A stretch of 64,000 nt of DNA from Verrucomicrobiales bacterium (GTDB taxonomy: Bacteria; Verrucomicrobiota; Verrucomicrobiia; Verrucomicrobiales; V1-33): assembly GCA_031411295.1 (NCBI GenBank), contig JANOAV010000038.1:14345-78344 (forward strand). The letters run 5' to 3'. The notes under the pieces are model-generated. The model worked only from the letters and a program-made list of their open reading frames with translations. It had not been told where the DNA came from and made no database searches. Numbering within the stretch: position 1 is the first letter of the stretch; each line of letters opens with the position of its first letter. Of the stretch, positions 23,379 to 56,518 are shown one piece after another. A program made the translations under genes and the position numbers.

Positions 23379-26300
23379 CTATGGTTTCACCAATTTGAAG
23401 AAGCAACGTTGGGCGTTGGTTCCTGGAGTGGCCTTCTTTTGATCGCCCACAGTGGTCGTGGGCGCAGGGGAATCAATCCAGGTCTTCATGTCCAAGCTTT
23501 CCTTTAGCACCCAGCCGTCGGCGTTGGCAGGCCAGGTTAGAGTGAGGCCGTTGTTGCCGATGCCTGCGGTGCTGGTCATGCGCGGGATGAAGCCTGCGGT
23601 GAGGGCACGTGGTCCTGCGGCGGTAAAGCTCATGCTGGGGTTGGAGTTGACGATGACGCCATTTTCCACCCAGCCGATGAATTCCCATCCGCTGCCAGGG
23701 GTGGCTTTGAGGTTGACGTTGGCTCCTTGGACATAATTGCCTGCACCTGTTACGGTGCCGCCTGCTGCGGTGATGGAAATAGTGCTGGGCTGCACGCCTA
23801 ACGCAAAGGGCGAAAGGCTGGTGGTGCTGACGGTAAGAGTCTTGGCTACGGTGTTCACAGTGCCGGGAAGCTTCTCCCAGAGGGTGCCGTTATAGTGATA
23901 GATGGCAAGGGTGGTTTCGTCGAAGCCCGCAGGCAGCAACGACGGATTATATGCGAAGGTTAGATGAATCGCCCCGGTGTGGCTGCCATTGTATTCCAAA
24001 TGCCAGAGTTGGGTGATGCTTCCGCTGGGTTTATCAAAGGATGGTAGAGCGAAATCGCCCTCGTTCTCGCGCTCGAACATTTCTGCCTCATCGGCTTCGG
24101 CATAGTCGCCAAAGAAGGTGCCTTCGTTGGTGATGTCATCGAACTCAAAGTCCACCCCTCCGACGTGGGAGGAACCGCCATTGCAACTGCCGCCGCCGTG
24201 ATTTCCGCCGCCGCCGGTGGTGACTTTGGTGCCGGTAAGCAGACTGAGCAGGATGTCCAGGTTGGTGGATTGCCCGGGGGCCAAGTTACCCACGGACCAA
24301 CGTTGGCCACCTGCAATCCAACGGTCCGCAGGTGCGAAGCTGTCATGTCCCTGCCTTGTGGCATATGGCGCGCCCTGCCAGTTGGCCTCAATGGAAAGAT
24401 GCACGCCATCGGAGGGTTTGCCGTTGAAGTGATTATCCAAGCCATTTCCCTCGATGCCGTAATGCCCGATTTCAAAAGCGGTGGGAGCCACTTTGGAATG
24501 GAAGGCGATGCTGTCTTCCAAGCCCGCTGCGGAACTGCCGCTGCCAGTAGCGTTGGCGTCATTTCCAGTGAGCGTGGCATCGTAGTGGTATTGGCTGAGC
24601 TTGCCCGCGTAGGCCCGGTTATCATAGACCCCGCGTTGCGAAATGAGGCCGTGCAGGAGTTGGAAGAGTTGCACGCTCGTGATCGCTGAACCGCTGATGT
24701 TGCGGACGCGGAAACTTTCGTTCAGCACATAGCGGTTACTATTGATGGAGCTGCCCACACCAGCTGCGCTGGCCGCGGTGAGGCCCATGGGCGTGCCGGT
24801 CACTGTGTCTAGCATTTCGAAGTGCAGCGTGATTTCCAAGTCGTCATTCGCGATGATGGATTCCGCAATCGGCAGGCCATCCAGATTGGCTCCCACGAGA
24901 TGAATGCCCTGCACCACGCGGAAGGTGGAGTTCGTGTGCCAGTCCGGGTAGAGGAAATTGGGGTCCAGCCACGTGGGAGCCACGGCCACGCCATCCTTGG
25001 TGTAAGCTACGGCGGAGGCCCATTCGCCACTCAAATACTCGCGACCTTCGAAACCAGGAGTGTTGTCCAGCAGGTAGTCTGAGTAGCCGTAATCGGTCAG
25101 AGTGATGTTCCAGTTAGGATTCGCCAGCTGCATGGATCCACCGGTGCTGCCAGCGGGGCTGGCAATGAGATTGTCGATGAGGAATTTCTGCGCTCCGGCG
25201 GGGAAGGTGGCGAGTTCGATGCGGATATGATCGAAGCTCACTCCGGAATTGAACGTCATGGTCCCAGTGGGATAAGTGTCACCAAACATGCTGGAACCAT
25301 GTCCCAAGGAGGAACCCACGACGACGGGGAGTCCTGAGCTATGATCGCTGGCCGTGACTAAAAGATTGGATCCAATGTTGGTGGCGGTTTCCACGGTGGC
25401 GAAGTTAAACGAAACGCCAGTGATGGCTTGATCAAATTGCACTTCGATCACGGTGCCAACACTGGCACCAGGAGCTACGAAATGAGCGGCAAACTTGGTG
25501 AGCGTGAAACTAGTGCTGGCTTCCGTTTCCACCGTCGGCGGGGAAGTATCGGATGAGGAAAAGTCAGCCGTGACGCCACCTACAGTCTGACTGAACGGCA
25601 TGGGCGCATGCAAGGCCAGCGCAGGGATGCCGGTGTCGAAGGTGAAATGAATTCCCGCCAGACCAGCGGAGAAATTGGCGGTGTAGTCACCACTGGCGGT
25701 TGGCGTGAAGGTATAGCTGGGGCTGGTGCTAACTTCATTGCCCAGACTGTCCGTCCAGTTGATAAATTCATATCCAGCAGTGGCCGCAGCCACCAAAGTG
25801 AGACTGGCGCCCGGAGAAACACTGCTGGCTCCTAGCACCGTGCCGCTGCCCGTGGGCCAAGCGGAGGCGGTGATGGTATAAGCAGGCGAGAAGTTCGCGA
25901 CCAGCGTGCGGGGCGTGCTAACGGTGAACGTGTAGGCTACAGCGGTGCTGACGATGGTCCCGCCATCGGTCCAATTTCTAAAGACGTAATCTGGGTTCGA
26001 TACCGCTTCCAAGGTGGCGCTGGCACCGCTGGGATAGGCTCCTGCGCCTACCACAGAGCCACCAACCGCAGGCACGGCACTGGCAGTAATGGCGATCGCT
26101 GGCGCAAAATTGGCGACCAGCGCACGATTGGCACTGGTGGTGAATGTATAGTCTGCATCTGCGCTCACCACCGCTCCGCCAACCGTCCAATTGCTAAAAG
26201 CGAAGCCTGGATTCGGCAGGGCGGAAACCGTCACGTCATCGCCAATGGCATATGCTCCATCGCCCGAAACCGTGCCTCCAAGGGCTGGAGCGGCGGAGGT

Positions 26301-27995: not shown

Positions 27996-28723
27996 TCCGT
28001 TTCCACTTCATCAGGCTCCCCATTTTTCCAGTTCTTCTTTTCCGGATGATCCGGATCATTCGAGACCAGTTCGCGCAATTTTACTTTCTCGGCATTATGG
28101 GAGGTGGTGCGAATCTCTTTCATCCAGACCGCCTTACCGAATTCCTTCGGCTCCACAATCTTCGGTGGTGGTGGGGCAATCACCGCCTGCACCTGCGCCA
28201 CTCCGCCATTGACGGGCGGATAGTAAGTAAATGAAGGCGTAGAAACTTGCACGGCTCCGCCGGAAACCAGCGTGCCAGATCCATCGTCGATCAGCCAATT
28301 ATAACGCACCGCACCTACCGCAGCATTGTAGCCTGCGCCAAAGTGTTCGCCTCCGAAGTTCACGGCGGGATTGGTAAACATGTGGCCATTGGTCGGAGAA
28401 ATGGGACCGCTGGGGATGGCGGTGTAAGCGGCCCACGTGCCATCGGGTTTCTTCTTGCTATCCCAACGAATGCGGCACTTCGGATGTCCCGCCACCGAGT
28501 TGTCCTCCGTGATATTCGGCACTCCGTAGTGGTTGTAGTTGTAAGTATAAGTGATCGAGGTGCTATGACAATCTTCGATCTCAATCTCAAAGCCATGACA
28601 CTCATGACCCGTGTCATTGACCGTGTCGAAGTTATTGATGGAGCCATAAGCGATGCTGGCCTGGGCCACAGGGGAGGCGGCTAGGAGCGTGGTAAGCAGG
28701 GGTAGGAGGAAAGGTAGTTTCAT
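27896..28723 (-). CDS. Secreted N-terminal segment (signal peptide + Cys/His-containing beta domain), likely the true N-terminus of the giant repeat protein
   Basis: 'MKLPFLLPLLTTLLAASPVAQA' signal peptide. The ORF ends 'PEDLPGEMKS*' at a C5/G5 run (27910-27914). One extra G gives '...PEDLPGGNEVVTRRYEFYKY...', which is the frame of 23379..27995. Confidence 0.6.
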   Translation of the reverse strand: MKLPFLLPLLTTLLAASPVAQASIAYGSINNFDTVNDTGHECHGFEIEIEDCHSTSITYTYNYNHYGVPNITEDNSVAGHPKCRIRWDSKKKPDGTWAAYTAIPSGPISPTNGHMFTNPAVNFGGEHFGAGYNAAVGAVRYNWLIDDGSGTLVSGGAVQVSTPSFTYYPPVNGGVAQVQAVIAPPPPKIVEPKEFGKAVWMKEIRTTSHNAEKVKLRELVSNDPDHPEKKNWKNGEPDEVETEWQILQKDYGKVDGGLNAKKAAAPEDLPGEMKS

Positions 28724-28908
28724 AGGCAGCGGGATTCGCTACCAGAGTAACCTCCATCGCACTGACTACAATCTAACCACCGTAACGGAACGGTTGGATT
28801 AACGAGTTGTCACCTTGGGCATCTTCCGCCCCCTTGTCGCAACGCGATTAAACGTCCCGGACCCCACAGACTTGACCGTTGCGAATTCCAGAGCGTTCAT
28901 GAGAAACC

Positions 28909-30981
28909 ATGCGCCTGCACCATCTAGCTCTCTTGAAACTTACGACCCTGATCTGTCTGGGCAGCGGTGGACTGAATGCTCGTGAGTTGACGCTGCTGCC
29001 TACCGCTGAGATCATCGCTAACCCGGAGCGGGGTTTCTATTCAGCCTCGGGTTTGGATACTGGAACGCTCCAGACGAATGCGGCGGCGGGCATTCGTCTG
29101 TGCATCCATGAAATCATCCTCCAGGAGTTTCTCACCGTCCCAATTACGCCGGATAAGCTGGAGGCGATTCGGCAGGATTTCTTAAGGGTGCGGCAGGCCG
29201 GGCTGAAGTGTGTGGTGCGAGTGGCCTACAACGACGACGCGAACCTTCTAGATGCACCATTGTCGATCGTGCAAATGCATCTGGCGCAGCTGAAACCAAT
29301 CTTTGCCGAGTTCGATAGTGTGATTGCCTTTTACCAGGCAGGCATCATTGGCTCCTGGGGCGAGTGGCATGGATCGACAAATCTAACGACGGCGGCAGCT
29401 CGTCAGGCGGTGGTGACAGCGTTGTTGGCTACGTTACCGGCAGGCCGCTTCATTCAAGTGAGGACCCCGGATTTCGTCAATGAACTCAACCAGGGCGCAA
29501 TCCCATTGACCGCCGTTACGGCATTTCAGAATACCCAGCGCGCCCGCTTGGGGCACCACAATGATTGCTGGAGAGCCAGCGCTACGGACTTCGGCACCTA
29601 TTCCTCAGATGCGGTGGTTCAGGAAATCGCGAAAGCCTTCATCGCCAGTCAGACGAAATTTCTACCATGGGGAGGGGAGACGTGTGACTTGGCCCCACCC
29701 TACTCGGACGCTGCGCCCAGCTTGGCGGAGGCGGCCCGTTTCCATGCGACCTATCTCAACAAAGACTATCACCCAGATGTGCTCGAGGCTTGGGAGGGAG
29801 ATGGAACAATGAATGAGCTGCGCAGACAGTTGGGATATCGCTTTGAGTTGCAGAACGCCACGCTGCCGGACAATCTCGGGATCGGGACTTCCTATCCCTA
29901 TCAAATCAAACTTCGCAACCGCGGTTGGGCTCCAGTTTACAATGCGCGTCCGGTATTCCTGCGGGTCATGGCAGGGGATCAGGTCATGTTTGATCTACCG
30001 ATTCCGAACGCCGACCCCCGTTTTTGGACTCCCGAGGCCGGGGAAATCGTGCTGCAGGGGGCGTTTGTGGCCCCGGTCAATGTGGCTGCGAACACACTGG
30101 GTTTCGCGTTTTGGCTGCCCGATGCTGATGAATCGTTGCGAGCCCGGCCAGAGTATTCCATCCGTTGTGCTAACGACTCCGTGTGGTCGGCAGATCAAGG
30201 ACACAATAGCTTGTTCGCAGGAGGTCGCACCCTCGCCAATAAAGTTCGCGTGGATGGTAACTTTGCCGACTGGGCGGGCCGCACCTTTACAGCAGACCCA
30301 GTTGGGGATCACTCGACTGCGATAACAGACTACATTGAGGCCAGTGTTGCGAGCGACCGTGATCGTCTCTACCTCAGGCTCAAATTTCAGCAACCCGTTA
30401 ACTGGGCCGCCAACTCGCACAACAACCTGTATGTGGACACCGACAATAACTCGTCCACGGGCTATCAGGACTCGGGGTTCGGGTCTGACCTGCTGATTCA
30501 GAGCGGGATCGGTTATCGTCAGGTGGCGGGGGTTTTTAACCATGGTTTGATCACCGGCTTGGACTTTCGGATCGCTCCAGCGGGGATCGCCAGCGAGATT
30601 GAAATGTCCGTATCACGCGACGCCATGTTTGCAGGACAACCAATCTTTGCCCGCACCGGCAGCATCGCATTGCTGCTGACAAGTGAGAGCAACAACTATG
30701 TCACTCGTGAGCGACTGCCGGATGCACCAGGTAAATGGATTCACTCATGGCCCTTGGCTGGCCGCACGCTGGCCAGTAACTGGAGTTCAGCCCAAGGGTT
30801 CTCGATAACTGGTGGTGGCAGCGCCAATACCTTTTACCAAGTCTCGTGGAGTAATACCCTCAACGGAGATTGGAAACCCGCTGCCCTCTCCTTAACCGAC
30901 GCTCAGAACCAATCTTATTTCCTGGATCCTGCAGCAGCCACGGTGCCTCGCAGGTTCTATCGCATCTCTGAAGCGCCTTGA
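28909..30981 (+). CDS. Secreted DUF4874/DUF4832-like putative glycoside hydrolase with a C-terminal 'RRFYRI' tail
   Basis: Signal peptide, 'NPERGFY', 'LKCVVRVAY' and 'FYQAGIIGSWGEWHGS', as recalled for DUF4832 TIM-barrel proteins. The family assignment is from memory only. Confidence 0.55.
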   Translation: MRLHHLALLKLTTLICLGSGGLNARELTLLPTAEIIANPERGFYSASGLDTGTLQTNAAAGIRLCIHEIILQEFLTVPITPDKLEAIRQDFLRVRQAGLKCVVRVAYNDDANLLDAPLSIVQMHLAQLKPIFAEFDSVIAFYQAGIIGSWGEWHGSTNLTTAAARQAVVTALLATLPAGRFIQVRTPDFVNELNQGAIPLTAVTAFQNTQRARLGHHNDCWRASATDFGTYSSDAVVQEIAKAFIASQTKFLPWGGETCDLAPPYSDAAPSLAEAARFHATYLNKDYHPDVLEAWEGDGTMNELRRQLGYRFELQNATLPDNLGIGTSYPYQIKLRNRGWAPVYNARPVFLRVMAGDQVMFDLPIPNADPRFWTPEAGEIVLQGAFVAPVNVAANTLGFAFWLPDADESLRARPEYSIRCANDSVWSADQGHNSLFAGGRTLANKVRVDGNFADWAGRTFTADPVGDHSTAITDYIEASVASDRDRLYLRLKFQQPVNWAANSHNNLYVDTDNNSSTGYQDSGFGSDLLIQSGIGYRQVAGVFNHGLITGLDFRIAPAGIASEIEMSVSRDAMFAGQPIFARTGSIALLLTSESNNYVTRERLPDAPGKWIHSWPLAGRTLASNWSSAQGFSITGGGSANTFYQVSWSNTLNGDWKPAALSLTDAQNQSYFLDPAAATVPRRFYRISEAP

Positions 30982-30995
30982 GCGCCTGCGGCAGT

Positions 30996-33533
30996 TCAAG
31001 GCCGCACCAGACGCAGGCGGATGAACCTGCGGAGGCCGCTGCTGAGCGGGATGTTATCGCGCGCTTGTAGCCAAGTTGGCGTGTCTTGGAGAATGGTCGT
31101 TTCTAGATCGCTCCAGTCGGTGAGATCACTGCCGACTTCTATGATGTAGTTTACATCGGTGGCGGCGGGATTGCGCTGCACATCGAGGGTAAGGTAGTCT
31201 GGGGAGCCGATCAGGCCTGGCAGGCCGTTGAGAGATGGGATCAGGGGTTCCAGACCCAGCGCGTATTCAGTTAGATTATCACAGCCATCGAAATCGGGAT
31301 CAGCATTATCTCCGCGGATGAGGTCGTTGTTCGCATCGGGGCCAAATTTATCCAACTGCCAGAGTGCGATGGGTGGACTTCCTTCCGGGGTGTCTAGGAT
31401 CGTCACGCTGCCGCTTGATAACACCCCAAGACGATATTCAACGTTGGGATTGCCAGTCAAGGTGATGGTCTCTGCGCCTTGTCGCAGGCTGTCTGGCTGC
31501 GGCGTGACATTAATCGTCTGGCCGGAAGCTCCGGCGGGAATGGTGACTGGCACCGTGATGGGTGCATAGCGCGAACCTGCGGCAGTCCCGCCGAGCGTAG
31601 CCTGGACGCTGAGTGGATTGATGGTGGGACCACTGCGCGTTATGCTGAATTGTCCGGCCACTGGACCGTATTCTGCGGCGGTCGGCTGCGGAGTGCTAAC
31701 CGTAATCAGCGGACCTTTATCGATGCTAAAATAATCATCCACCGTTCCGGTGCTGGTGATGAACTTGGCATCGAGCCGATTCCCGTCAATATCCAAGACC
31801 AGTGACCCTAACCGCAGCTCTGAATGATGCATGACGGGATGCGGGTGTGGGTTAAATTTCACCGTGCTGTTGTCCGTCCAATACGTTGCTTGGCCGGAAC
31901 TTCCGGCAACGACATAGACCACGCCCGCATGCGGCCCGTAGTCTTTACCGTAACCACCGTCTCCATCTCGTTTCCCGTCGCCTGCATCCTTGAAGGTTCC
32001 GCTGGTGGCGAGTGTGGGAGTGGCATAGAAGCCTTCGATTAAACGAGATCGCTCGTAGCAATGACTGTGGCCGCAGAGCACGAGATCCACTCCTGCGTCA
32101 TCCATTATTGGAACCAGAGTCTGGCGCGCCCAGGTGGGTTGGGATTCGACATCGGAATCATGGCTTCCCTTCGTATAGGGCGGGTGATGCCAAATGGCGA
32201 TGGTCCAGCGTCGGGTATTCGCAGCCAGATCATTGTTCAACCATGTGAGCATGTTGCTGCGCAGGGTGGCATTATTGGTCTGCACGTCCAGGCTGATGAA
32301 ATGCACATTTCCGAAATCCCACGAGAAATAGCGCTCCGTGCCGGAGGCATAGCCGCCACATTCAGCAGCGGTGGGGAAAGTGAAAATATCGAAGTAGGGC
32401 ACTCCGGAATAACTGCCAGTCCTAACTTGGTCCGTCTCGTGATTCCCCAGGCAGGACCAAACGGGGCTTTGCTGCAGCACCGCCGGATAGGTATCAAAGA
32501 GCGCGCTTTGGTATTCGGAATCAGTGCCCGCGTTGTAAGCGTTATCCCCTAGCAGCAAAATCATGTCGTTGAACTTGTAAGTGCTGCTCAGATAGTAAGC
32601 ATCGCGCACGGCTCGCTGACCGGTGTTGGCGGTGCCTGAATCTCCCAGTGCCCAGAGGCGCATGGGGCGGTCAGTGCCTGGAATCGGAGCCGTCCTGAAA
32701 TAATGCTCCGCATCCTCACCCACCATCGTCTTGGTGGTGGATCCGATGGAGTAGAAATATTTCGTGTCAGGCTGGAGTCCTGTCATCCGCACTTCATGCT
32801 CCATGGTGACAGTCGCGTCTCTGGTAATGCTAGTCAGCGCCCCCAGAGCCGTGCCGATGCGGACCACGCTGTCAGAGTCTGTGCTGGTCCGCCAACGCAG
32901 CGTCATGCCGGAGTCTGTATTCATCAGTAAATAAGGCCCCCGCGTCACCTCGGAAAGCCCCGCCAACTGAAGGTCGAAAGCGATGTCCGAACTCGCAGCA
33001 GAGGACTGATGAATCTCGACCGCGATGGTGTTCAAGCCAGTGACAAAGGTGCTGGTTGGCAACGCCCAAGACTTGCTGGCATTGTCTGCGCTGGCGGAAG
33101 TGGCGAACGTATCGAAGGCCGCGGCCGCAGGAAGATTCGCGGTTCGCGCAGCTTCCACGCCATTGATGAACACCGCTGCGGAGTCATCATACGTCAGCGT
33201 GAGCCGAATCGCGTTGAACTGACTGGGATCGATTAGGTTCACCGTTGCACGGAAATAAGTCGTCGCGTTTTTCTGCGTGCCAGCCGCAACGGGATCGGTG
33301 TCGATGTAACCAACCACGGTTGTTTCGGTTCCGCCGCCATAGCCCAGTTGAGCAGGACCCGAGGCCCACGCGGTGTCATCAAACGCTGGAGCCCGCCAGG
33401 CGATGCCCTGATCGCTGCCGTCATCCAGATAACGCCACGTGGAGCCACTGGGAAGGAGTGTGGTCGTTTGCGCCTGCAACTTGGCACTCAGGCTCAGACA
33501 AGCGTAGAGCAGCATAAACGGAATGAATTTCAT
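30996..33533 (-). CDS. Secreted metallophosphoesterase (purple-acid-phosphatase-like) with an N-terminal CotH-associated beta-sandwich module and the C-terminal DxDxDG...RRFIRL module
   Basis: Signal peptide and calcineurin-like motifs 'LWALGDSG', 'LLLGDNAY', 'CLGNHE', 'IWHHPPY' and 'LCGHSHCYERS'. The ATG overlaps the stop of the upstream TPR gene (ATGA). Confidence 0.8.
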   Translation of the reverse strand: MKFIPFMLLYACLSLSAKLQAQTTTLLPSGSTWRYLDDGSDQGIAWRAPAFDDTAWASGPAQLGYGGGTETTVVGYIDTDPVAAGTQKNATTYFRATVNLIDPSQFNAIRLTLTYDDSAAVFINGVEAARTANLPAAAAFDTFATSASADNASKSWALPTSTFVTGLNTIAVEIHQSSAASSDIAFDLQLAGLSEVTRGPYLLMNTDSGMTLRWRTSTDSDSVVRIGTALGALTSITRDATVTMEHEVRMTGLQPDTKYFYSIGSTTKTMVGEDAEHYFRTAPIPGTDRPMRLWALGDSGTANTGQRAVRDAYYLSSTYKFNDMILLLGDNAYNAGTDSEYQSALFDTYPAVLQQSPVWSCLGNHETDQVRTGSYSGVPYFDIFTFPTAAECGGYASGTERYFSWDFGNVHFISLDVQTNNATLRSNMLTWLNNDLAANTRRWTIAIWHHPPYTKGSHDSDVESQPTWARQTLVPIMDDAGVDLVLCGHSHCYERSRLIEGFYATPTLATSGTFKDAGDGKRDGDGGYGKDYGPHAGVVYVVAGSSGQATYWTDNSTVKFNPHPHPVMHHSELRLGSLVLDIDGNRLDAKFITSTGTVDDYFSIDKGPLITVSTPQPTAAEYGPVAGQFSITRSGPTINPLSVQATLGGTAAGSRYAPITVPVTIPAGASGQTINVTPQPDSLRQGAETITLTGNPNVEYRLGVLSSGSVTILDTPEGSPPIALWQLDKFGPDANNDLIRGDNADPDFDGCDNLTEYALGLEPLIPSLNGLPGLIGSPDYLTLDVQRNPAATDVNYIIEVGSDLTDWSDLETTILQDTPTWLQARDNIPLSSGLRRFIRLRLVRP

Positions 33534-34402: not shown

Positions 34403-37400
34403 TCACGGTTTCTGCGAGACCCCAAGCCTGTAGAAACGATGCACCTGGCTGGAGGCAGGCTCCACATAGGTGCGCGTTTGTTTGCCTGCTGTCAGGGAGA
34501 TGGGGGGCGCGTCCACGCGGGTCCAAGCCGCCAAATCAGAGGAAGCCTCCAGGAAATAGTCCACGTCTGGCATCAGCATATTCACTTCAAATGTGGCCAC
34601 AAATTCCCCCGAGCCGAGCGAGTAGGTCAGTGGAAGCATGCGCGTGCTCAAATTTGGATCCGTGCCCAGTGCATACTCCATCAAGTTAGTGTAACCGTCA
34701 CTATCTGAATCCGCTAGCATTCCCGCCACGCTGTGGGCCGTGGCCCAGTCTGCGAAGCGATTCCCCGGTGCCGCCGTGCCGGGCGAGGCATTTGCGGCCA
34801 TCCAGTTGATGTAGTCATTGCCGTAGTCCTTTTCGGAAAGTTTCGTCAGTGACGGACCGTCGCCATCCGGTGTCGTGGGCCATGGCGCAGCATCCTCGAA
34901 ATTCACCCGATCCTGCCGCACGTATTGCAGCACGTTCAAGGCATCCACTGCGCCTGGACGATCCAGTTGCAGCGACTCTCCACCGTTGGCCAATCCTCCC
35001 GTCAGCCATTCGTAAACTCTGGTTCCCGCAGGCGCCAGCGCGCCATAAGCCGTCGTGAATTGAGGGATATTCTTGGTCAGGATGATGCGCTCGCCTGGGA
35101 GCATTGTGACCGGAGTGACTGAGGGGAATTCGAAATCAATGCCATCGCTCAAGCGCCAAGCCTTGGCCTTTACGCTGTCAAAGAGAGTGACGGAGGCATT
35201 GCTGACGTTGAGCAGTTCGATATACTCGGAGTCTCCGTTGCCAGCAGGATGATACATGACCTCGGAAATCACGATCGGCCCCACGCGCGGCCCGCTGTTG
35301 GTGGCATTGGGTGTCGGGCTGGCCATGGCCACGAAGTTGTAGGAGTCGCTACTAGGTTTGTAGTAGGCTCCCAGCGATTCGCCTTCCGTGCTGGGGCCGA
35401 AGTCTTCCTTGGACTGGTAATCAGTGAGTTGATCATTGGCAGCGGAACTGAGATAGACCGTCTCACCCACATCGCTCAGGGCGAAAGGAGTTACTTTGTT
35501 TACGTCCACGCTGGTGGCTCCGAAGTTGGTGCTCTCATAAAATGTCACGAACCCATCAGCAGGAATCACCGTGCCAACGGGGATGCGATAACGCAGCAGG
35601 TCAGAACCACTATCACTGAGGAACCACCCGCCGATGTTCATGGGATTGCCCGTGCGGTTGTGCAGCTCGATCCAATCGCTGGCGGCCCCGGAGTTGGACA
35701 GCACTTCATTGATCACCACCGTTTCCCCGATGGTGTAGGGATAATGACCCACGTTATAAACATACTGGGCCCCACGATCCACCACCGTCGCATCCGGGTC
35801 CAGGGCATGAGCAGGATCGCCCGAATTGATCACTGGGGATTCAGGACGCACTTGGAAATTCAGCGTCACAGGATCAATGAACATTGGATCCGCCAGCATG
35901 TTTTCCGTCCCATCAATGGCCAAGTTATCGCTGAGGCAATACGCCGTGCTGACAGTCGAGAATCCATCCACCGTTACTGGCGGAGTGATGGACTTGGAAA
36001 TGATGGTGTTGGTGATCACAGCAGAGCCGCCCCCATCACCAAAGTTCTTTTCATAGATGGCAACACCCGTGCCACAGGAGGCGAAGGTGTTCTGATCAAT
36101 CGTCGCGAACGAGCCTGTATCCTTGATGCCAACCCCAAGCACGCATCCCACCACCAAGTTTTTGCGAATGATAACAGTGGACCCCTGACCGACGGAGAAG
36201 CCTTTGTCAGAGTTGTAGTAGATCAGATTCCCCTGAATTAATACATTCGTGCAGGCTTCACCAATGTCGATCCCATCGCTGTTGGAGCCTTGGAAACGAT
36301 AGATGTGGCAGTCTTCAATGAGTCCATTCGTCACGCCGTCGTAGTCGATGGCATCCGTGTCGGGCGCATTATTGCCGGGGAAAATACAGCGCTGGGTGGT
36401 GGCCAGGCCCTGCTTCACATTGATGCAGTCGCCCGTGTAGGGATTGTAAAGTCGGCTGTCGCGCAAGGTGGTATTGCCGCCGCGCGCAAACACTGGACCT
36501 TCCGAATCAGCAACATCAATGTAATCCAGAATCAGCGTGGCATTGAGCCCGGAGATGGCCGAAGGATACTTCGTGGCATCGAATCCCTTGGTGGCTTGGC
36601 GAATGAACACGTGATTCAGATGGGAGGGGCCGCTGGGATTTTCAAAACTGATGCCGCCCCACCGTTCGCCATTTCTTCCCACGATGGAGACCGGCTGCGC
36701 AGTCGTTCCATCAATGTTCAGCACGCCCTGCACGCGAATGTTGCGGAGTGCTGTCATCCGAATTTCCACGCCTGCTGGAACAGTCAGCGTGATGCCGCTT
36801 GGGATGATGAGATCCCCACTCAGCACGTATGGCGAAGCCGCTGCGCTCAGCGTAGTGTTGCTGGCCAGAGTTCCTCCAATCACAGTCTCCGTGGCAGGAA
36901 CAAAATTTGCGGTAATGGTCTTCGCAGCCGTAATCGTGACACTGATGCTGTCCCCCCCGGTGGCTCCAGTCCAACCGCTGAAAGCATAGCCCGGGGCGGG
37001 CTGCGCCTTGAGCGTGAACGGAACATTGGGGAACATTTTGAACGTCGAGGGATCGACCGGGACCCCCTGCACCAACACCTTGCCTTGTTCAGTATTGTTG
37101 ACTGCGAGGGTGAAATTGACCGCAGTGCCCACGCCAAGCTGCGTGGTGGCTTCGCCATAGAAATTTGCCGTCCGTTGCACCGCATAATCTTTGATGTTTT
37201 GAATATTGCTCGCCCGGGTGGCAACGGTGGTCCCATTGGGTGCCCAACGTGTGACATGGCGTGGAATTTCGGCTGCGATCTCCGTGTCCATGGCCGAAAT
37301 GATGGCATCCACCCGGGAGGCTTTAAATGTCCCCGCCACGTGTGCGGCATAACGCTGAGCCAGGCGACCTTTGAATGGAACGTTAAGCTTCAGACGTTTC

Positions 37401-39649: not shown

Positions 39650-39718
39650 AGTAAGGAGGGACGCATCTCCGAACTGCTGGGGGAGCTTTGGTCGAAATTG
39701 CTGGTTTGGGATGGAATT

Positions 39719-39730
39719 GGGGGGGGGGGG
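39719..39730. repeat. G12 (C12 on the coding strand) homopolymer, 70-81 nt upstream of the CotH/LTD start codon
   Basis: Direct reading: ...ggaattGGGGGGGGGGGGcgtgac... On the minus strand, TTGTCA lies 2 nt 5' of the tract. Confidence 0.9.
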
Positions 39731-39802
39731 CGTGACAATTCTGTAACAGAACACTCAGGCTGTGAATCCTAAAATGGTAACTGTTTGGTTGGATTTGAAT
39801 TT

Positions 39803-41066: not shown

Positions 41067-41621
41067 TTACGGTGTGGTCACCCTAAGTTGCAGGAAACGT
41101 CGTTGGATGCCGATGTTAGTCAGGTCTCCTGAGTCGGTGAAATTTACCACGCCTGCGGTTTCGGTGAGGGTGGTGCCGGGCGCGTTGATCCAGCCGGTGG
41201 CATCGGTCCAAGTGGCTAACGTGGTCCAGTTGACGGGCTGTAAATCGGTGGAGGTGAGGATTGTCAGGGTAACATCGGTGGCTGCTGGGTTGCGGGGGAA
41301 TTGCAGCGTCATGAAGTTTCCGCCGTGTCCGCCCACCGGGTGGGTGGTGGGGTTCGGGAGGGTAGGGTTGGTGCCCAAGGCGTATTCGTAGAGGTTGGTC
41401 CGGCCATCGTTGTCTGGGTCCGCCAAGTTTGCTGCGTTACCCGTGTTAGTGGCGGTGGGTCCAAAGAAGCTTTGCCGCCAGGTTTCGATGGGCACAGGGG
41501 GCGTGCCGGTGATGAACACGAGGGTATTGCCGGTGATTTTGAATACACCGGTTACGCCTGCGGCTAAATTGGTGGCCGTGAAGTCCGCAGTGGTGCAATC
41601 CGTGCTGCCAAAGCTGATCAA
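41067..41621 (-). CDS. C-terminal part of the PATR protein, carrying the DxDxDG...RRFLQLRV module
   Basis: The frame is open further upstream (...KYRQPHTFDFTGTGANGFTYPLISFGSTDCTTADF...) to about 41695. It overlaps the end of ORF 41618..44392 in another frame and has no signal peptide of its own. Confidence 0.65.
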   Translation of the reverse strand: MISFGSTDCTTADFTATNLAAGVTGVFKITGNTLVFITGTPPVPIETWRQSFFGPTATNTGNAANLADPDNDGRTNLYEYALGTNPTLPNPTTHPVGGHGGNFMTLQFPRNPAATDVTLTILTSTDLQPVNWTTLATWTDATGWINAPGTTLTETAGVVNFTDSGDLTNIGIQRRFLQLRVTTP

Positions 41622-47947: not shown

Positions 47948-49612
47948 TTAAGATTTTGTTAGTTGCAGGCGCGCGAAGCGACGCATGGTGGAAGGAGCCG
48001 GATCCGTGGCCTCGACCCATTCCCATTCCGCGGTGAGCGGCGTGATCGTGAGGGAGGCACCGACCGGAGTGTCCCAGGAAGTTAAATCGGAGCTGAACTG
48101 CGGGGCATAGGTCACACCTCCAGCATTCAGGCCACGGCGGCGGAGGAAACGGAATTTATAGACGGGTGGCTGGCTGTCATGATTCAGTGTTTGATAGGGC
48201 AGCATGCCGTTGCCAGACTGGGTGGTGGTGACAGCATTGGTGCCGGGGATGAACTCTGGCCGGGCATTGCTCTGGGGATCCAAGTTGAGGGCAAATTCCA
48301 ACAAGTTATTCAGGCCGTCGCCATCCGCATCAGCCGTGGGGAGCGCATCCGGTCCGACGAGCAAATTATCAACTGCCCAGCTCGCGAAGGCGTCTTTCGT
48401 GATGCTCACGGTGGCGGTGGAAACCACGCTGACGCTATTGCCCACGGCGTCTGTCAGATCCAGTAAGATCGTGGCTACTCCTGCGACGGAATTCGTTGGC
48501 ACCGTCAGGGGGATTTTGTAAGTTCCGTTGGTGGCAGAACCACTGGTGCGCTGGTTCAGCAGGAAATCGCTGGTGGCGACAATTTCCACCTGATTAGGAC
48601 CGGCTGGCAGCGCCAGGGAAATCGTGCCAGCCTTGAAGCCGCTGAGGTTATCCGCAATAATCAGGGTGGTATTAAATGTTGCGTCAGCGCTGGTCACGTC
48701 CACCGTCGCAAGTGCCGGAACGGCCGATATTAGGGTGGGCGCTGCGAGGTCAACGCTGCCCGTATTGGTAACGGGAAGACCAGCCCCCAAGGCTGCGGGA
48801 AGGCTCTGCCAGCCGAACCCTCCAACCACGAAGACATAATCGGGATCACTTACTGTCGTGGCTAAAGAAATGGCAAACGGCAGCGTCCCTGGCGGGGTAT
48901 ACCGCGGCACGGTGAATCGAAGTTGATAGGTGCCAGCGGTGGTCGTGCCGGAAATGCGATCAGTATCAGAAAACGGGGAGACTGTCAGCAGGGCGCCTTT
49001 CGGGGTGTAGAGTTCGAAAAGCCCCGTGCTCAGCGGATTGCCACTGGCAATGGTAAACTGCACCGTAACGTTGACGTTGGCGGAGGTTACGTTGGCTGGA
49101 GTTGCGCTGTAAGTTACATTGGTAACTAAATTTGCCGGTGCGCCCACGCTCTGTAGATTCAAGGAAATATTTCCCGTCGCCCCCTGAAATCCCTGCACCG
49201 CAATGGCATAAACCACGCCCGCCGTGGCCTCGAAGCGCACTCGACTGGTGGACACCTGACCAGGGAGCACTGGGTCATCATCATCTGCTGCCACCCGCAC
49301 CAGAGCGGTCATCGCAGCTGACTTATAAACTGCCAAAATGGTATCGAAATCACTGCCCGTTGTCGCCAGTTCGAACCAGCCCGTGGCAGGCGCTGTCCAC
49401 GACCACCAGACGGAGGCCCCCGCAGCATCATTCGGCAGAGGTGCGGGCTCGCCCACTTCTGCGGTAGCGCCAAGATTGTTGCCCGTCGCATTGATGGGGG
49501 CCCCTGTGAGAGCTGTGGCACTTGCCAAACCGTCATTTGCCGGAACCGCCACGGCGCTTGTGGAAAGCGCTAAGGAAAACAATGTAAATATTATAATGTG
49601 GGAGAGGCTCAC
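47948..49612 (-). CDS. Secreted protein: N-terminal 'ND..A.A...GEP...VWWxWTAP...FDTxLAVY...DDD' beta domain, Ig-like middle, C-terminal DxDxDG...RRFARL module
   Basis: Signal peptide 'MSLSHIIIFTLFSLALSTSAVA'; motifs as quoted. No enzyme signature recognised. Confidence 0.6.
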   Translation of the reverse strand: MSLSHIIIFTLFSLALSTSAVAVPANDGLASATALTGAPINATGNNLGATAEVGEPAPLPNDAAGASVWWSWTAPATGWFELATTGSDFDTILAVYKSAAMTALVRVAADDDDPVLPGQVSTSRVRFEATAGVVYAIAVQGFQGATGNISLNLQSVGAPANLVTNVTYSATPANVTSANVNVTVQFTIASGNPLSTGLFELYTPKGALLTVSPFSDTDRISGTTTAGTYQLRFTVPRYTPPGTLPFAISLATTVSDPDYVFVVGGFGWQSLPAALGAGLPVTNTGSVDLAAPTLISAVPALATVDVTSADATFNTTLIIADNLSGFKAGTISLALPAGPNQVEIVATSDFLLNQRTSGSATNGTYKIPLTVPTNSVAGVATILLDLTDAVGNSVSVVSTATVSITKDAFASWAVDNLLVGPDALPTADADGDGLNNLLEFALNLDPQSNARPEFIPGTNAVTTTQSGNGMLPYQTLNHDSQPPVYKFRFLRRRGLNAGGVTYAPQFSSDLTSWDTPVGASLTITPLTAEWEWVEATDPAPSTMRRFARLQLTKS

Positions 49613-49759
49613 GAGAGTTCGGATGTGGAATAATCTGGCGCTCAGCAGAGTAGCAGGGGAATGCTCTTGGGGCTGTGCGAAGATCGTTTTGGAGTGACAG
49701 TTCGACTCTCTCAGAATCTGCTGAAATTACAATTTATGTAGCGTAACCAAACGGTCAGA

Positions 49760-51797: not shown

Positions 51798-51930
51798 GGC
51801 AGCAGGGAGTTCGGAGGGATGATAAGGGAGAAATGGATTGCAGGCAATGATTGCTTTCCTGCCTGGGTTCCTACAGAAATCCCGTGTTGTGGGGAGCACA
51901 GCACGGGATTTCGCAGAGTTTAAATGATTG

Positions 51931-53703: not shown

Positions 53704-53869
53704 GGGGTGCTGTCATTTGAAGGATTCAATGGCGCTCGCAACTATACTAGGCTGCCAGGGGCATTTCTGCAAAATTTCTAGGGTAACGAGTTGGTTGGAA
53801 TTTACGCAGGCTTGATAAATCAAGGATTGGGCGGGACGGAAATTTCGAAAAAATGCGTTCATCTGGCTG

Positions 53870-56518
53870 TTAGTGGGTGGCGGTTAAGCGGTAAAATTGA
53901 TGTCCGGGGCTGAACGGCACCGTGAGTTGCAGGGTGCAAATGGGGCCCTCAGTGGCGATCACTTGCGGCGTGATGGGCGTGGGCGTCCAGTTGCCAGCCA
54001 GGGTGGGGCTCTGTTGCACGCTAAGCACCACATCGCCTGCTCCCAGGCACTTTTGAAACGTCAACTGTAGGTCATTCCCGGCTTGGGCCACCTTCATGCC
54101 GCCGCCGGGGTCGGCCACCGTGGGCAGGGTGCCCTGGGCATACTCCACGAGATTCGGGATGCCATCTCCGTCCGCGTCCGCGCTGTCGGCCGCCAGGGCT
54201 GATCCCAAGTGCGCCAGTTTCCATCGGCTGTAGGCAGGCATGGCATCAGCCACGCGGAAGACCACCCCGCCGCCGTTGGTGCCACCAGCAGCAGTGAAGC
54301 CGAGCAGTTCCCCACTCGGGGTGAAGGACAGACCGCCAGCCACAGGATTACTTCCAACGCTGGTGGCAGGCCGCCCCGGGGCGTTGCCGCCATTTCCCGT
54401 GAAGGAAATGAGAGTCGTTAGTCCCGTCAGCGCCTCGTAGCGAAAGACCGTGCCCATCCCGCCGGTCCCGCCTGCCGCCGTCATGCCGTAGAGCGCGGCA
54501 TCTGGTCCCACCGTGAGCGTGCCCACGGGCTGGGTGCCCGTGAGTGAGGTAAATTCTGCCACGGCACTCCAGGTGTTGGTGCTGGGATCCACCCGCAGCA
54601 GAGTGCCTCCATTGGTCGTCCCGCCGAGGCTGGTGGTGCCATAGAGAAATCCATCCGTGCCCGTTACCAAGCCGCCCAAGGGCGTGCGTGGACCGCTCGC
54701 AGTAAACTCTGCCAAGACCGTGGGCGTGCCCGCTGCGCTTAGACGGAAGAGCGTGCCGGCGTTCGCGCTGCCGCCGGATTCCGTTAACCCATAGAAGTAG
54801 GTATTGGCCGCCAAAGCCAGCGGTCCCCGCGGGCGCTGGCCTTTCACCGCTCCCGAACTTCCCGTGAACGAAACCAGCCGCGTCCGACCTCCGGCGGTAG
54901 TAACGCGCGTTAGAGAACCCAGCGAAACCGACCCGCCCTCCCGACTCGATCCATACAGCGCCCCGTCCTGCCCCCGCACCAACGGACCTTCTGCCGCCGA
55001 ACCAATCCCCACGCTGTGATTGGCCACCAGGTTCAACCCGCTCGCATTGTAAATGTAAGTTGTGCCCCGATTCGACCCGCCACCTGCAGTCGTGACTCCA
55101 TAAAAATCAGTCCCCACTTTCAGCAAACCACCGCTGGGAGCTGCGCCCGCCGCGCCACCGAAGTCCGCCACCGCAGCCACGCTGGCAACGGCATTCGTGA
55201 ACGTCAGCCGCACCATGGTGCCAGCTCCCGCGCCCCCGCCTTCCAGCAACGGGCAGAGCCACGTGGTGGCGGATTCAGCCACTGGGGCTCCGGCCGGATT
55301 CCAACCTAAGGCAGTGGAGAAGTTCCCCAAATTCGTGAATCCACCAGCGGGAGTGACTTTGTAAACATTTCCCCGATTCCCCCCGCCGCCGGCACTCGTG
55401 GCCCCCCAGAAATTTCCATCCGTGCCCAGCACCAACCCCGCCCTGCTTGCGGCACCAGTAACCAAGCCAGAAGCGCCTGTGAAATTCACCAGCACCGTCG
55501 GCACGCCCCCGGTCGTCATTTTAAAGATCACCCCGGAACCATTGGTGCCGCCCCCGGCCGTAGTGCCATAGAATAAACCGTCCGCGCCCTTTACCAGCGG
55601 CCCCATCGGCTGCGAACCCGTGGCATCGGCAAAATTCCGCAGCGTCGTAAATACCGGGGATGCCGCCGTCGTGATCTTGAACGCCGTGCCGAAATCCGTA
55701 TTCGATCCCCCATATTCCGTCGTGCCATACAAGGCCGTGTCCGCCGCATTGTAAAACAAACCGGCTGCGGGAGCTGAGCCCAGTCGGGTGCCCGTGGTGC
55801 CGGTAAACTCCGTCATCAACGTGTAGGCGCCAGCCGTCGTGAGTTTGTAAATCACCCCCAGGCCATTCGCCCCGCCCGCCTTCGTCACGCCATAGAGCGT
55901 GCTCCCGTTAAACGTCAGCGCCCCCACCGGTTCTGCGCCCTTGGCGACTCCCGTCGTCCCGGTGAATTCCAGCAACGTGGAAAATAGACCGGCCGAAGTC
56001 AGTTTAAACACCGTGCCGAAACCACCCGTGCCACCCGCCTGAGTCAGCCCGTAGAAATTGCCATCGGAATGCTGCACCAGGCCAGCAGGGATGGATCCCT
56101 TGGCCGCTCCGGCAGTGCCGGTGAAATTTACCAAACTCGTGAATTGCCCCGTCAGCGAAATGCTGAACACCATCCCGAATCCATTCGTCCCGCCCGCCGA
56201 AGCCGTCCCGTAGAGCAAGCCATCCGTGCCCCGAATCAGACTCGCAGCCGGACCTGATCCAGTCGATGCGGTGAAGTTGTAAATGGTCGTCAGCCCCCCC
56301 GCGGGAGTCATCCGATAAATCGTGCCCGCATCCTCCGGACCGCCGGCCACCGTGGTGCCATAGAAATTTCCATCGGATCCTTCCACCAACGCCGTCAGCG
56401 GTTGGGCGCCCGGCAGCACGAATTCGTGGAGCGACTCGAACGTAGCCGCCCCTGCCGCCTGCCATGACCGACAAACCGCTAATACCACCAGCAAAAAAAG
56501 CTTCACCTGAAAATGCAT
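53870..56518 (-). CDS. Choice-of-anchor tandem-repeat GloVer (Gloeo_Verruco repeat) protein ending in the DxDxDG...HQFYRL module
   Basis: Signal peptide and ~18 units of 'G..P...L..G.DG.LYGTT..GG..G.GTVFK.T..G..T.L..FTG'. The C-terminus is not PEP-CTERM. Confidence 0.8.
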   Translation of the reverse strand: MHFQVKLFLLVVLAVCRSWQAAGAATFESLHEFVLPGAQPLTALVEGSDGNFYGTTVAGGPEDAGTIYRMTPAGGLTTIYNFTASTGSGPAASLIRGTDGLLYGTASAGGTNGFGMVFSISLTGQFTSLVNFTGTAGAAKGSIPAGLVQHSDGNFYGLTQAGGTGGFGTVFKLTSAGLFSTLLEFTGTTGVAKGAEPVGALTFNGSTLYGVTKAGGANGLGVIYKLTTAGAYTLMTEFTGTTGTRLGSAPAAGLFYNAADTALYGTTEYGGSNTDFGTAFKITTAASPVFTTLRNFADATGSQPMGPLVKGADGLFYGTTAGGGTNGSGVIFKMTTGGVPTVLVNFTGASGLVTGAASRAGLVLGTDGNFWGATSAGGGGNRGNVYKVTPAGGFTNLGNFSTALGWNPAGAPVAESATTWLCPLLEGGGAGAGTMVRLTFTNAVASVAAVADFGGAAGAAPSGGLLKVGTDFYGVTTAGGGSNRGTTYIYNASGLNLVANHSVGIGSAAEGPLVRGQDGALYGSSREGGSVSLGSLTRVTTAGGRTRLVSFTGSSGAVKGQRPRGPLALAANTYFYGLTESGGSANAGTLFRLSAAGTPTVLAEFTASGPRTPLGGLVTGTDGFLYGTTSLGGTTNGGTLLRVDPSTNTWSAVAEFTSLTGTQPVGTLTVGPDAALYGMTAAGGTGGMGTVFRYEALTGLTTLISFTGNGGNAPGRPATSVGSNPVAGGLSFTPSGELLGFTAAGGTNGGGVVFRVADAMPAYSRWKLAHLGSALAADSADADGDGIPNLVEYAQGTLPTVADPGGGMKVAQAGNDLQLTFQKCLGAGDVVLSVQQSPTLAGNWTPTPITPQVIATEGPICTLQLTVPFSPGHQFYRLTATH

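Follow-up and report, generated by a model that had tools for sequence, protein, structure and literature searches.

Seven otherwise unrelated exported proteins encoded in the window, by which we mean the entire 64-kb stretch of DNA analyzed here, terminate in the same small folded domain. These seven tails are members of a single family of small extracytoplasmic domains, which hardly occurs outside Verrucomicrobiota, and the module terminates thousands of exported proteins in this phylum. Verrucomicrobiota include Akkermansia, marine degraders of fucoidan and sulfated glycans, and abundant soil and freshwater lineages, and they export very large enzyme sets as well as giant repeat proteins. 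To our knowledge, little has been described of how these exported proteins cross the outer membrane or stay on it.

Seven exported proteins with one C-terminal domain

Five proteins in the window carry the full module, and all five are encoded on the minus strand. Models built from any four of the full tails find the fifth among the six-frame ORFs of the window (leave-one-out E 5e-10 to 9e-22). Furthermore, all five are recovered (E 1e-19 to 6e-41) by an independent profile derived from 240 database sequences, which has no other match in the window. These E-values exclude chance or low-complexity similarity.

The metallophosphoesterase, an 845-aa protein (gene 30996-33533) with Metallophos and Pur_ac_phosph_N domains and the signal peptide MKFIPFMLLYACLSLSAKLQAQ, ends in a W-helix, a Ca loop (31260-31301), and a beta-sandwich that together span 30999..31370 (independent profile E 6e-41; leave-one-out E 3.5e-18). 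The tail of a CotH/LTD/beta-helix giant occupies 34406..34759 and has its Ca loop at 34670-34711 (E 2e-26 and 2.2e-17, respectively); the host ORF spans 34403-39754, with a probable ATG at 39649 and a signal peptide after Met36. The PATR protein carries its module at 41070..41489 and its Ca loop at 41379-41420 (E 3.5e-32 and 8.8e-22). This gene is split by a frameshift into an upstream ORF that holds the PATR (TIGR02601) match (41618-44392) and a second ORF (41067-41621), and the frame changes within 41621-41717 (about 41671-41700), in the middle of a PATR-type segment. A 554-aa DUF7035 protein with a signal peptide (gene 47948-49612) has its tail at 47951..48391 and its Ca loop at 48290-48331; this tail includes an insertion of ~20 aa, and the independent profile matches it in two pieces that flank the insertion (E 1e-19; leave-one-out E 6e-14). 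The fifth full module (53873..54232; Ca loop 54137-54178) closes an 882-aa GloVer repeat protein (gene 53870-56518, with a TIGR03803 match) and is found at E 5e-28 by the independent profile and 4.9e-10 in the leave-one-out search.

The remaining two proteins carry a beta-only tail. Protein A, an InlB-B-repeat giant encoded on the minus strand (23379-28723), has such a tail, without the Ca loop, at 23382..23612, as recognized by hhalign and AlphaFold. Its gene is frameshifted at a G5 run (27910-27914), and the upstream ORF (27896-28723) encodes the signal peptide. Protein B, a 690-aa DUF4874/DUF4832 protein encoded on the plus strand (28909-30981), has its beta-only tail at 30784..30978, as recognized by hhalign and phmmer. 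Among the window ORFs, both tails fall below simple HMM thresholds with the leave-one-out models and the independent profile, and a word-index homologue search with the 66-aa tail of protein A returned no candidates. Regardless, the view that A and B are unrelated tails is overturned by profile comparisons. When compared with the module by hhalign, tails A and B score 26.8 and 24.7. Of 400 control C-termini, 399 reach no more than 18.3, and the sole control above this value is itself a beta-only tail. An alignment of A, B, and eight beta-only tails from GloVer homologues matches the module profile over 61 columns (94.4% probability, E 8.7e-8), in register with the C-terminus. In addition, the best non-self phmmer matches of tail B are module proteins (E 1.4e-4 and 2e-3), again with the C-terminus in register.

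The first-pass annotation had described seven shared tails, and all seven were recovered where it had placed them, each protein ending 0-2 residues after the last beta strand. Its claim of a shared module agrees with the homology of the five full tails, and the profile-profile comparison confirms its view of A and B as relatives that carry only the distal half.

Domain architecture and comparison with described families

The core of the family is an FN3/Ig-like six-strand beta-sandwich of about 75 aa. Most members, including the five full tails of the window, add a helix-loop-helix cap (about 50 aa) in front of the sandwich, and this cap holds a conserved Trp and a single loop, DxDxDGxxNLxEYAxGxxP. 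The full module measures 113-141 aa in these five tails and is composed of the W-helix, one EF-hand/TSP3-like Ca loop, and the six-strand sandwich. The last strand reads (R)(R)F-h-R-[LV]-(R/K)-[VI]-(T/S)-x-(P) with the stop codon directly after it, and the five full tails close with RRF-x-R-L-x-V-x-x-P-stop. This extreme terminus is tightly constrained across the family.

AlphaFold predicts that the full module of the phosphoesterase forms one compact domain (pLDDT 95.7, pTM 0.87), with helices at residues 6-20 and 22-25, a loop at 26-37, a helix at 38-44, and then six strands. The beta-only tail of protein A is likewise predicted to form six strands whose order and spacing are as in the full module (pLDDT 78.8). 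Conservation in the family is complete or at least 90% at D30, D32, D34, G35, N38, and E41, and these residues fall on EF-hand positions 1, 3, 5, 6, 9, and 12. Thus the ligand positions (1, 3, 5, 9, and 12), the Gly at position 6, the placement of loop 26-37 between helices 22-25 and 38-44, and the exiting helix all follow the EF-hand pattern, which is indicative of a Ca site. Many different folds bind Ca2+ through a Dx[DN]xDG motif (PMC3123361). The loop positions and the AlphaFold model, with its predicted Ca site, therefore bear out the earlier proposal of a Ca-loop element joined to a small beta domain. The nearly invariant residues of the module are W10, the Ca ligands, W92, F122, R124, and L125. 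All of these could be fold determinants, and so they do not demonstrate a distinct binding surface.

No named family in Pfam-A 2025 or NCBIfam 20.0 covers the module, no PDB match covers it, neither sequence nor fold gives a significant match to a named CBM or FN3 family, and a description of it is absent from the literature searched. These comparisons uphold the initial impression that the module belongs to no recognized family. The only PDB signal comes from weak profile matches to the FN3 domain 1wf5 (E 0.056) and the CBM32 domain 4a42 (E 0.52), which have an 'S-D-x-x-W ... RF-x-R' pattern in common with the module. Among the top 50 fold matches listed, cytokine-receptor FN3 domains align with TM scores of 0.36-0.57.

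The proximal half of the tail resembles TSP3_bac (PF18884) in that DxDxDG is followed by G-T-x-P. The PF18884 model matches one of the five full tails, and weakly (best E 0.012), and precomputed PF18884 matches are present in three database homologues (P0005, P0013, and P0103). Unlike TSP3_bac, however, the tail has a single loop rather than an array, a beta-sandwich is joined to this loop and supports it by packing, and NLxEYA takes the place of the usual acidic TSP3 continuation. A dockerin lacks a sandwich and comprises two F-hand repeats, which in type I are tandem Ca loops about 22 aa long, whereas the tail has one loop per module. This single loop, together with the lack of any match to Pfam Dockerin_1 in the five full tails (E up to 10), rules out a dockerin. 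The Amuc_1099 family of pilus-like system proteins (NF042425) was also rejected. Its model reaches 14.9-16 bits against a cut-off of 50 and covers only 20-27 residues of the Ca loop, with the overlap restricted to model positions 128-154 of 321.

Taxonomic range, position, and passengers

An exhaustive search returned 34,825 cluster representatives, some of which match the Ca loop alone, and it also drew in multi-repeat TSP3-type proteins via profile positions of about 9-55. A position-blind genome sample comprised 118 loci chosen solely by a degenerate DNA pattern of the Ca-loop core. According to the record titles, about 109 of these loci are labelled Verrucomicrobiota or Kiritimatiellae and none is labelled Bacteroidota, and two module-carrying MAGs in this sample are labelled outside the phylum. 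The carriers come from soil, freshwater, marine, and gut habitats.

The first-pass annotation had described a module that always lies near the stop codon. This holds for the seven tails of the window, and of the 123 modules in the position-blind sample, 119 finish no more than 10 residues before the stop codon. Among the top database matches, 196 of 247 modules stay within the same 10-aa limit. Family-wide, however, about 97% rather than all of the modules are C-terminal, and tandem, internal, and rare N-terminal copies exist. In a few carriers the module is located just after the signal peptide or ahead of an esterase domain, and therefore a free C-terminus is not required. Such copies argue for a binding domain that tolerates different positions and against a secretion signal that must lie at the C-terminus, and the tandem and rare N-terminal copies indicate that the module works as a free-standing domain.

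The passengers are diverse. A total of 60 Pfam families are represented in 53 carriers, including PATR (7 of the 53), LamG, LTD, CotH, GDSL, glycoside hydrolases, and propellers, and many carriers are hydrolases, esterases, or lectin-like proteins. A crude test detects a signal peptide in 44 of 64 carriers versus 88 of 409 control ORFs (Fisher p 2e-13). By eye, a signal peptide can be seen in the majority of the carriers that fail this test. This enrichment and the 60 families are as expected from the earlier description of the tail on signal-peptide proteins of differing architecture. Lipoprotein-like proteins account for 3 of 66 carriers, which indicates that most lack an N-terminal lipid anchor. 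Upstream of the module there is no conserved linker or cleavage motif, the composition being that of the passenger, and no neighboring gene recurs across the 118 loci, where the largest non-module cluster is present in 6 and no partner or processing gene emerged.

The GloVer family (TIGR03803) is named 'choice-of-anchor' by NCBI. The gene at 53870-56518 matches TIGR03803 with 13 repeats at E 7.4e-154 and 499.5 bits, against a curated cut-off of 44, and its product has its closest homologues in Verrucomicrobiaceae, Luteolibacter, and Prosthecobacter. Of the nearest 120 homologues, 101 have the full module at their C-terminus and 8 have the beta-only form (109 of 120 in total). Judging from these sequences, the tail appears to fill the anchor position on GloVer proteins and to replace the usual anchor. 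The PATR repeat (TIGR02601), another passenger, is normally associated with autotransporter domains.

Possible roles at the cell surface

The proposal that we favor, tentatively and as a possible rather than a probable one, is that the tail is a Ca-stabilized module that retains exported proteins at the cell surface or directs them there. Every functional step of this proposal is inferred. The distribution of the module has the features expected of a sorting or anchoring tag: it is 97% terminal, promiscuous, restricted to a phylum, and found at the anchor position of GloVer proteins. A host protein would leave the cytoplasm by Sec via its N-terminal signal peptide, and outside the cytoplasm the loop would bind Ca2+ and thereby lock the cap onto the sandwich. 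The folded tail might then serve as a non-covalent, lineage-specific targeting or retention module that binds a component of the verrucomicrobial envelope, such as an outer-membrane protein, LPS, or exopolysaccharide. This binding would keep on the surface those enzymes and repeat adhesins that have no anchor of their own. The tail would remain uncleaved, unlike PEP-CTERM or LPXTG signals, and perhaps additional tandem copies add avidity. Lineage restriction across habitats is easier to explain with a self-envelope ligand than with an environmental substrate, and the tandem copies and the tolerance of position fit a binding module.

As a mark on thousands of exported proteins, the module offers a way into the question of how these proteins cross the outer membrane or stay on it: a predicted surface or secreted proteome can be drawn up from sequence alone, the module can be used as bait for a receptor or machinery, and it could be turned into a display tag. 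With no database model for the module, the C-termini of a large protein set are now unannotated, and for this reason a curated model is deserved even if the tail is a mere binding module.

It is conceivable, although rather unlikely, that the tail is instead a lineage-specific FN3-like or CBM-like module with no sorting role, whose ligand is an external substrate or surface (polysaccharide, host, or prey) or which simply stabilizes and spaces its passenger, and that its terminal position reflects ordinary domain shuffling. Secreted enzymes commonly end in FN3/Ig-like accessory domains or CBMs, sometimes in tandem, that have no sorting role, and the predicted fold of the module is a generic FN3/Ig-like sandwich whose weak PDB profile matches are to domains of these two kinds (1wf5 and 4a42). 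The frequency of hydrolases, esterases, and lectin-like proteins among the carriers, the CBM-like occurrence of tandem, internal, and N-terminal copies, and the failure to find a dedicated partner gene in the 118 loci are also in keeping with such a role. However, a substrate-binding module would be expected to track habitat and enzyme class and to cross phyla, whereas the tail tracks phylogeny, being bound to one phylum and independent of enzyme class. Its 60 unrelated families include the non-enzymatic PATR and GloVer repeat proteins, its placement at the extreme terminus (97%, 0-2 residues past the last strand) is stricter than CBMs usually show, and the CBM and FN3 structure matches are not significant. 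We regard as still less likely the idea that the tail is a functional analogue of the T9SS CTD, namely a signal for outer-membrane translocation, belonging to a verrucomicrobial pathway of secretion or attachment yet to be discovered, that is recognized by a translocon in the periplasm and then possibly removed and replaced by a covalent anchor. T9SS cargo is described as diverse, as carrying a small C-terminal beta-sandwich, as belonging to one phylum, and as unlinked to the machinery genes (PMC4804311, PMC5445135). The tail matches in its extreme C-terminal position, Sec signal peptides, variety of cargo, large number of genes in each genome, confinement to a single phylum, and lack of linkage to machinery genes, and its predicted small Ig-like sandwich is also CTD-like. 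Moreover, the invariant terminal strand, always spaced alike from the stop codon, hints at a role for the free end. A terminal export signal does not readily account for tandem copies, for copies that directly follow the signal peptide, or for those that precede other domains, and the tail differs from T9SS CTDs in these tandem, internal, and N-terminal copies as well as in the EF-hand/TSP3-like helical cap that most of its members add. The CTD models in Pfam and NCBIfam (TIGR04183 Por_Secre_tail and the type B CTD) do not match the five full tails at E up to 10, and no CTD structure is among the top 50 Foldseek matches of either AlphaFold model. No candidate translocon or peptidase came to light, and the region upstream of the module has no conserved linker or cleavage motif. 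Membership in the T9SS CTD families was rejected given the lack of a model match and the wrong phylum (none of the 118 record titles is Bacteroidota), T9SS being reported solely from Bacteroidetes (PMC5445135). It would similarly be a long shot for the tail to be the cargo tag of an undescribed, Verrucomicrobiota-specific pathway for outer-membrane translocation and/or covalent surface attachment in which the Ca-loaded cap acts as an extracytoplasmic folding checkpoint; if true, such a pathway would parallel the Bacteroidota T9SS and its CTD and would explain the export and display of the large sets of glycan-degrading enzymes and repeat adhesins in this phylum.

Type I substrates lack an N-terminal signal peptide and carry GGxGxD repeats. 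That the tail is a type I secretion signal with Ca-binding repeats, or a tripartite signal of the PEP-CTERM/exosortase type, is extremely improbable, even though it is C-terminal, has basic residues near its end, and contains a predicted Ca-binding motif. The carriers in the window have Sec signal peptides and a single DxDxDG loop, unlike type I substrates, and the Sec signal peptides rule out a type I/RTX signal. PEP-CTERM systems do occur in Verrucomicrobiota, and the tripartite signal consists of a signature motif, then a transmembrane helix, and then an Arg cluster (10.1101/2023.06.07.544157). However, none of the seven tails has an uncharged stretch of more than 8 residues among its last 40 (the longest per tail measures 4-8), the full tail is a folded domain of 113-141 aa, and the PEP-CTERM models (PF07589 VPEP and TIGR02595) match neither the whole proteins at E up to 0.01 nor the five full tails at E up to 10. 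A tripartite signal is ruled out by the lack of a transmembrane segment in the tails. Like PEP-CTERM, LPXTG, and MYXO-CTERM signals, the tail is C-terminal, occurs on many unrelated carriers per genome, and is present on 'choice-of-anchor' families such as GloVer. It differs from them in having no transmembrane helix or short signature motif, in being a folded domain of 75-140 aa, and in that no sortase-like partner was found in the 118 loci. The lack of a transmembrane stretch sets the tail apart from PEP-CTERM-type signals, as the first-pass annotation had supposed in calling it a second tag. That annotation had also listed a true PEP-CTERM protein at 13413-14153, in which a DNRLRE domain is confirmed by a model match, whereas the PEP-CTERM tail has been seen by eye only.

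Relationship among the seven tails

Large exported proteins are encoded in succession in the window (GC ~0.57), and five of them, all on the minus strand, end in a full module comprising a W-helix, one DxDxDG loop, and a six-strand beta-sandwich. They are a phosphoesterase (30996-33533), a CotH/LTD giant (34403-39754), the tail of a PATR protein (41067-41621), a 554-aa protein (47948-49612), and a GloVer protein (53870-56518). ORF translation gives tails identical to those quoted in the first-pass annotation. When every six-frame ORF of the window is searched, leave-one-out models built from four tails recover the fifth with E-values of 5e-10 to 9e-22. Furthermore, a profile built from 240 database sequences alone matches all five tails (E 1e-19 to 6e-41) and finds no further module copies in the 64 kb. 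These values rule out chance similarity, and thus the resemblance of the five tails reflects homology.

Two additional proteins, the InlB-B-repeat giant A (23379-27995, minus strand) and the DUF4874/DUF4832 protein B (28909-30981, plus strand), carry a beta-only tail that lacks the loop. Both tails fall below ordinary HMM thresholds with the leave-one-out models and the database profile, and our first view was that they are unrelated to the others. Several observations overturned this view. When the module profile was compared by hhalign with the last 149 residues, A scored 26.8 and B 24.7, and both alignments keep the C-terminal register. Of 400 C-termini taken as controls from verrucomicrobial loci, only one exceeds 18.3, and that one (33.6) is a Ca-loop-less tail ending PRFYRVEIPQ. 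In the corresponding position, close homologues of the GloVer passenger carry the full module in some cases and a 75-aa beta-only tail closing with FYRL, FYRV, or FFRV in others, and A and B align well with these shorter tails. The beta-only alignment in turn matches the module alignment with 94.4% probability (E 8.7e-8, 61 columns). Finally, an AlphaFold model of the A tail (pLDDT 78.8), computed from an alignment that excluded all full-module sequences, has six strands whose order and spacing are those of the full module's beta portion. Therefore, the seven tails are members of a single superfamily, with the cap present in five and absent from the two beta-only ones, and the original proposal that they share a module is confirmed in full. 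A weak match to the module beta half inside B (30223-30393, plus strand; iE 0.21; ending ...RLYLRLKFQQ), ~195 residues ahead of the C-terminal tail, may be a second, degenerate copy.

Two of the host genes are frameshifted. The gene for A is split on the minus strand into ORFs 27896-28723 and 23379-27995, with a G5 run at 27910-27914. The upstream ORF has a clear N-terminal signal peptide (MKLPFLLPLLTTLLAASPVAQA) and meets the frame of A at CCGGGGGAAAT. Gain or loss of one base in the G5 run would join the two ORFs into a ~1,790-aa protein; sequencing error, pseudogene formation, and slippage are all candidate causes of the split. The PATR gene (minus strand; ORFs 41618-44392 and 41067-41621) is frameshifted within 41621-41717, most likely at ~41671-41700, midway through a C-terminal segment typical of PATR proteins (...TFDFTGTGANGFTYPLISF...), and no obvious homopolymer is present at the site. 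Public annotation lists the 184-aa PATR tail as a separate protein (P0001).

Domain anatomy and family status

The module has a median length of 126 aa (5th and 95th percentiles, 113 and 141) and the consensus W-x4-F ... ADPDGDGxxNLxEYALGTxP ... yLtLTf.R ... DvtY.VEvS.DL..W ... vtvRD.vP ... rRFiRLrVt. AlphaFold2, given a 70-sequence alignment, predicts one compact domain (pLDDT 95.7, pTM 0.87) with helices at residues 6-20 and 22-25, a loop at 26-37, a helix at 38-44, and then six beta strands. Residues D30, D32, D34, G35, N38, and E41 are invariant or nearly so and occupy loop positions 1, 3, 5, 6, 9, and 12, with the exit helix beginning at position 9. This is the EF-hand pattern, and the loop is probably a calcium site. 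It also fits the Dx[DN]xDG calcium motif, described as used by many folds (PMC3123361), and is similar to one bacterial TSP3 repeat (PF18884; E 0.012, in one of the tails). The loop pattern and the model support the earlier proposal of a calcium-loop element joined to a small beta domain.

The extreme terminus is fixed as (R)(R)-F-h-R-[LVI]-(R/K)-[VI]-(T/S)-x-(P)-stop, and R-L is in most cases followed by 5-6 residues. Uncharged runs of more than 8 residues are absent from the last 40 residues of all seven tails, which excludes a tripartite PEP-CTERM-type signal. A type I secretion signal is likewise excluded, given that carriers show signal peptides.

Matches for the passengers exist in Pfam-A (2025) and NCBIfam 20.0 (Metallophos, CotH, LTD, beta-helix, InlB B-repeats, PATR, DUF4832/DUF4874, DUF7035, and GloVer TIGR03803). 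Neither library holds a model covering the five full tails at E up to 10, and the beta-only form is covered by none in Pfam (E up to 1) or NCBIfam (E up to 10). The only NCBIfam signals, an overlap of Amuc_1099_fam with 20-27 residues of the Ca-loop and an overlap of CglD, lie far under cut-offs. Thus, within these two collections, the tail is indeed outside any named family, as the first-pass annotation suspected.

Distribution, position, and carriers

Exhaustive HMMER searching across 1.84 billion cluster representatives returned 34,825 proteins at E ≤0.001 and 8,887 at ≤1e-10, part of which are TSP3-repeat proteins aligning over the loop region only. Among 268 of the top-scoring proteins there are 247 full-length module matches, and in 196 of these no more than 10 residues separate the module from the C-terminus. 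A further 120-155 residues come after some 26 of them, in many of the listed cases the start of another copy, and about 20 are internal or N-terminal. One protein has five tandem copies. Because top-scoring matches are biased toward multi-copy proteins, we drew a position-blind sample instead, searching a 596-Gb one-genome-per-species collection with degenerate DNA for D-x-D-G-x-x-N-L-x-E-Y-A-L-G (~43 bits; by our estimate, <1 chance match expected). At least 118 loci were found. Among modules in the listed loci whose ORF ends inside the locus, 119 of 123 end no more than 10 residues before the stop codon. The claim that the module is always C-terminal therefore holds for about 97% of this sample, and internal, tandem, and N-terminal copies exist. 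Two or three module genes lie within 8 kb in 15 of 103 loci, a clustering like that in the window.

The family is nearly restricted to one phylum. Some 109 of the 118 listed loci are labelled Verrucomicrobiota or Kiritimatiellae, spanning Verrucomicrobiae, Opitutia, Chthoniobacterales, Limisphaerales, Akkermansiaceae, and Pontiella, with cultured Haloferula, Luteolibacter, and Pontiella strains among them. Two MAGs with other labels contribute four loci, and the remainder are unclassified. The Candidatus Limnocylindrales MAG SMAG_U15479 (L075, L116) and the 'uncultured Enterobacteriaceae' MAG SRP344714_co1_412 (L043, L104) each hold the module on two contigs. Mis-binning is likely for the latter because study SRP344714 also yielded Luteolibacter MAGs, and horizontal transfer is a possible alternative. 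The beta-only form recurs in other Verrucomicrobiota (L014, an 837-aa ORF ending ...PRFYRVEIPQ; L004, ...AYYRLQIQ; L117, ...AFYRVQAVQP) and on GloVer homologues (P0294, P0301, P0346, P0347, P0349, P0351, P0375, and P0377), and its taxonomic range is possibly wider than the phylum.

The 53 complete carriers contain 60 different Pfam families, among them PATR (7), Laminin_G_3 (5), LTD (4), GSDH, Glyco_hydro_cc, GDSL lipases, CotH, F5/8, Ig/PKD, Calx-beta, Metallophos, and RCC1. A deliberately strict signal-peptide rule accepts 44 of 64 carriers versus 88 of 409 control ORFs (Fisher p 2e-13). Of the 20 carriers that fail it, most show a signal peptide by eye. Only 3 of 66 carriers have a lipobox-like N-terminus. 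The 30 residues upstream of the module match the passenger in composition, and hence no conserved linker or cleavage motif is found there. When the passenger of GloVer, a family named 'choice-of-anchor' by NCBI, was used as query with the tail removed, the best 120 homologues included 101 that ended in the module, 8 that ended in the beta-only form, and none with a hydrophobic stretch plus Arg cluster at the end. Two tails given the latter label by an automated rule had been misassigned, since one is beta-only and the other lacks such an ending by eye.

Candidate roles and neighboring genes

The domain family is extracytoplasmic, overwhelmingly terminal, promiscuous, and without a database model. 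This distribution pattern is the one that identifies sorting and anchoring modules such as T9SS CTDs (PMC4804311, PMC5445135), dockerins, and PEP-CTERM. Moreover, the distribution is phylogenetic rather than ecological, which points to a ligand belonging to the cell itself. We tentatively favor a role in which the tail would retain or target the exported protein at the verrucomicrobial surface, non-covalently and with Ca2+ stabilization, and the surface-retention or secretion role first suggested is plausible. An ordinary ligand-binding or structural accessory domain ranks second and is a somewhat doubtful reading. A T9SS-like export tag is an unlikely third. Some copies directly follow the signal peptide or precede an esterase domain, and together with the tandem copies they show that a free C-terminus is not required. 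This is easier to square with a binding module that tolerates different positions than with a translocation signal, and it is the reason for preferring retention or targeting at the surface.

No recurrent partner gene appears in the neighborhoods of the sample loci. This result carries no weight either way, since known sorting systems likewise have scattered cargo genes. We conclude that the tail is a candidate C-terminal domain-type tag or anchor, a member of no described family, that merits a curated model and experimental follow-up.

Several other genes in the window deserve mention. Adjoining the genes for the 554-aa and GloVer proteins, 46793-47731 and 51931-53703 (minus strand) encode secreted proteins with Asp-rich DxDGDG-type repeats by eye (DLDGDGIANIVDPDVDNDGIPN...); they have no Pfam match at E ≤0.001, no match to the module profile, and only weak sub-cutoff NCBIfam noise (E up to 1). 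The proteins of 45253-46644 (minus) and 57106-58086 (plus), which flank the module-gene cluster, share similar Trp/Ala-rich segments by eye (...TWAGLEPEKALTWV..., ...AAAQDWLQTEW...) and lack Pfam matches at E ≤0.001. The DNRLRE-domain protein at 13413-14153 (minus; NF033679, E 9e-16), earlier called a true PEP-CTERM protein, is plausibly one, with a PEP-CTERM-like tail by eye (VPE, a hydrophobic stretch, and RRRR), and is matched by no PEP-CTERM model. The stop codon of a secreted TPR-repeat protein (33530-34354, minus) overlaps the phosphoesterase gene where the latter begins (33530-33533), an arrangement suggestive of co-transcription. Lastly, a PSCyt1/PSCyt2/PSD1 protein (6610-9609, plus) is followed by a DUF1501 protein (9630-11063, plus), a gene pair typical of Planctomycetota and Verrucomicrobiota that fits the phylum assignment of the window.
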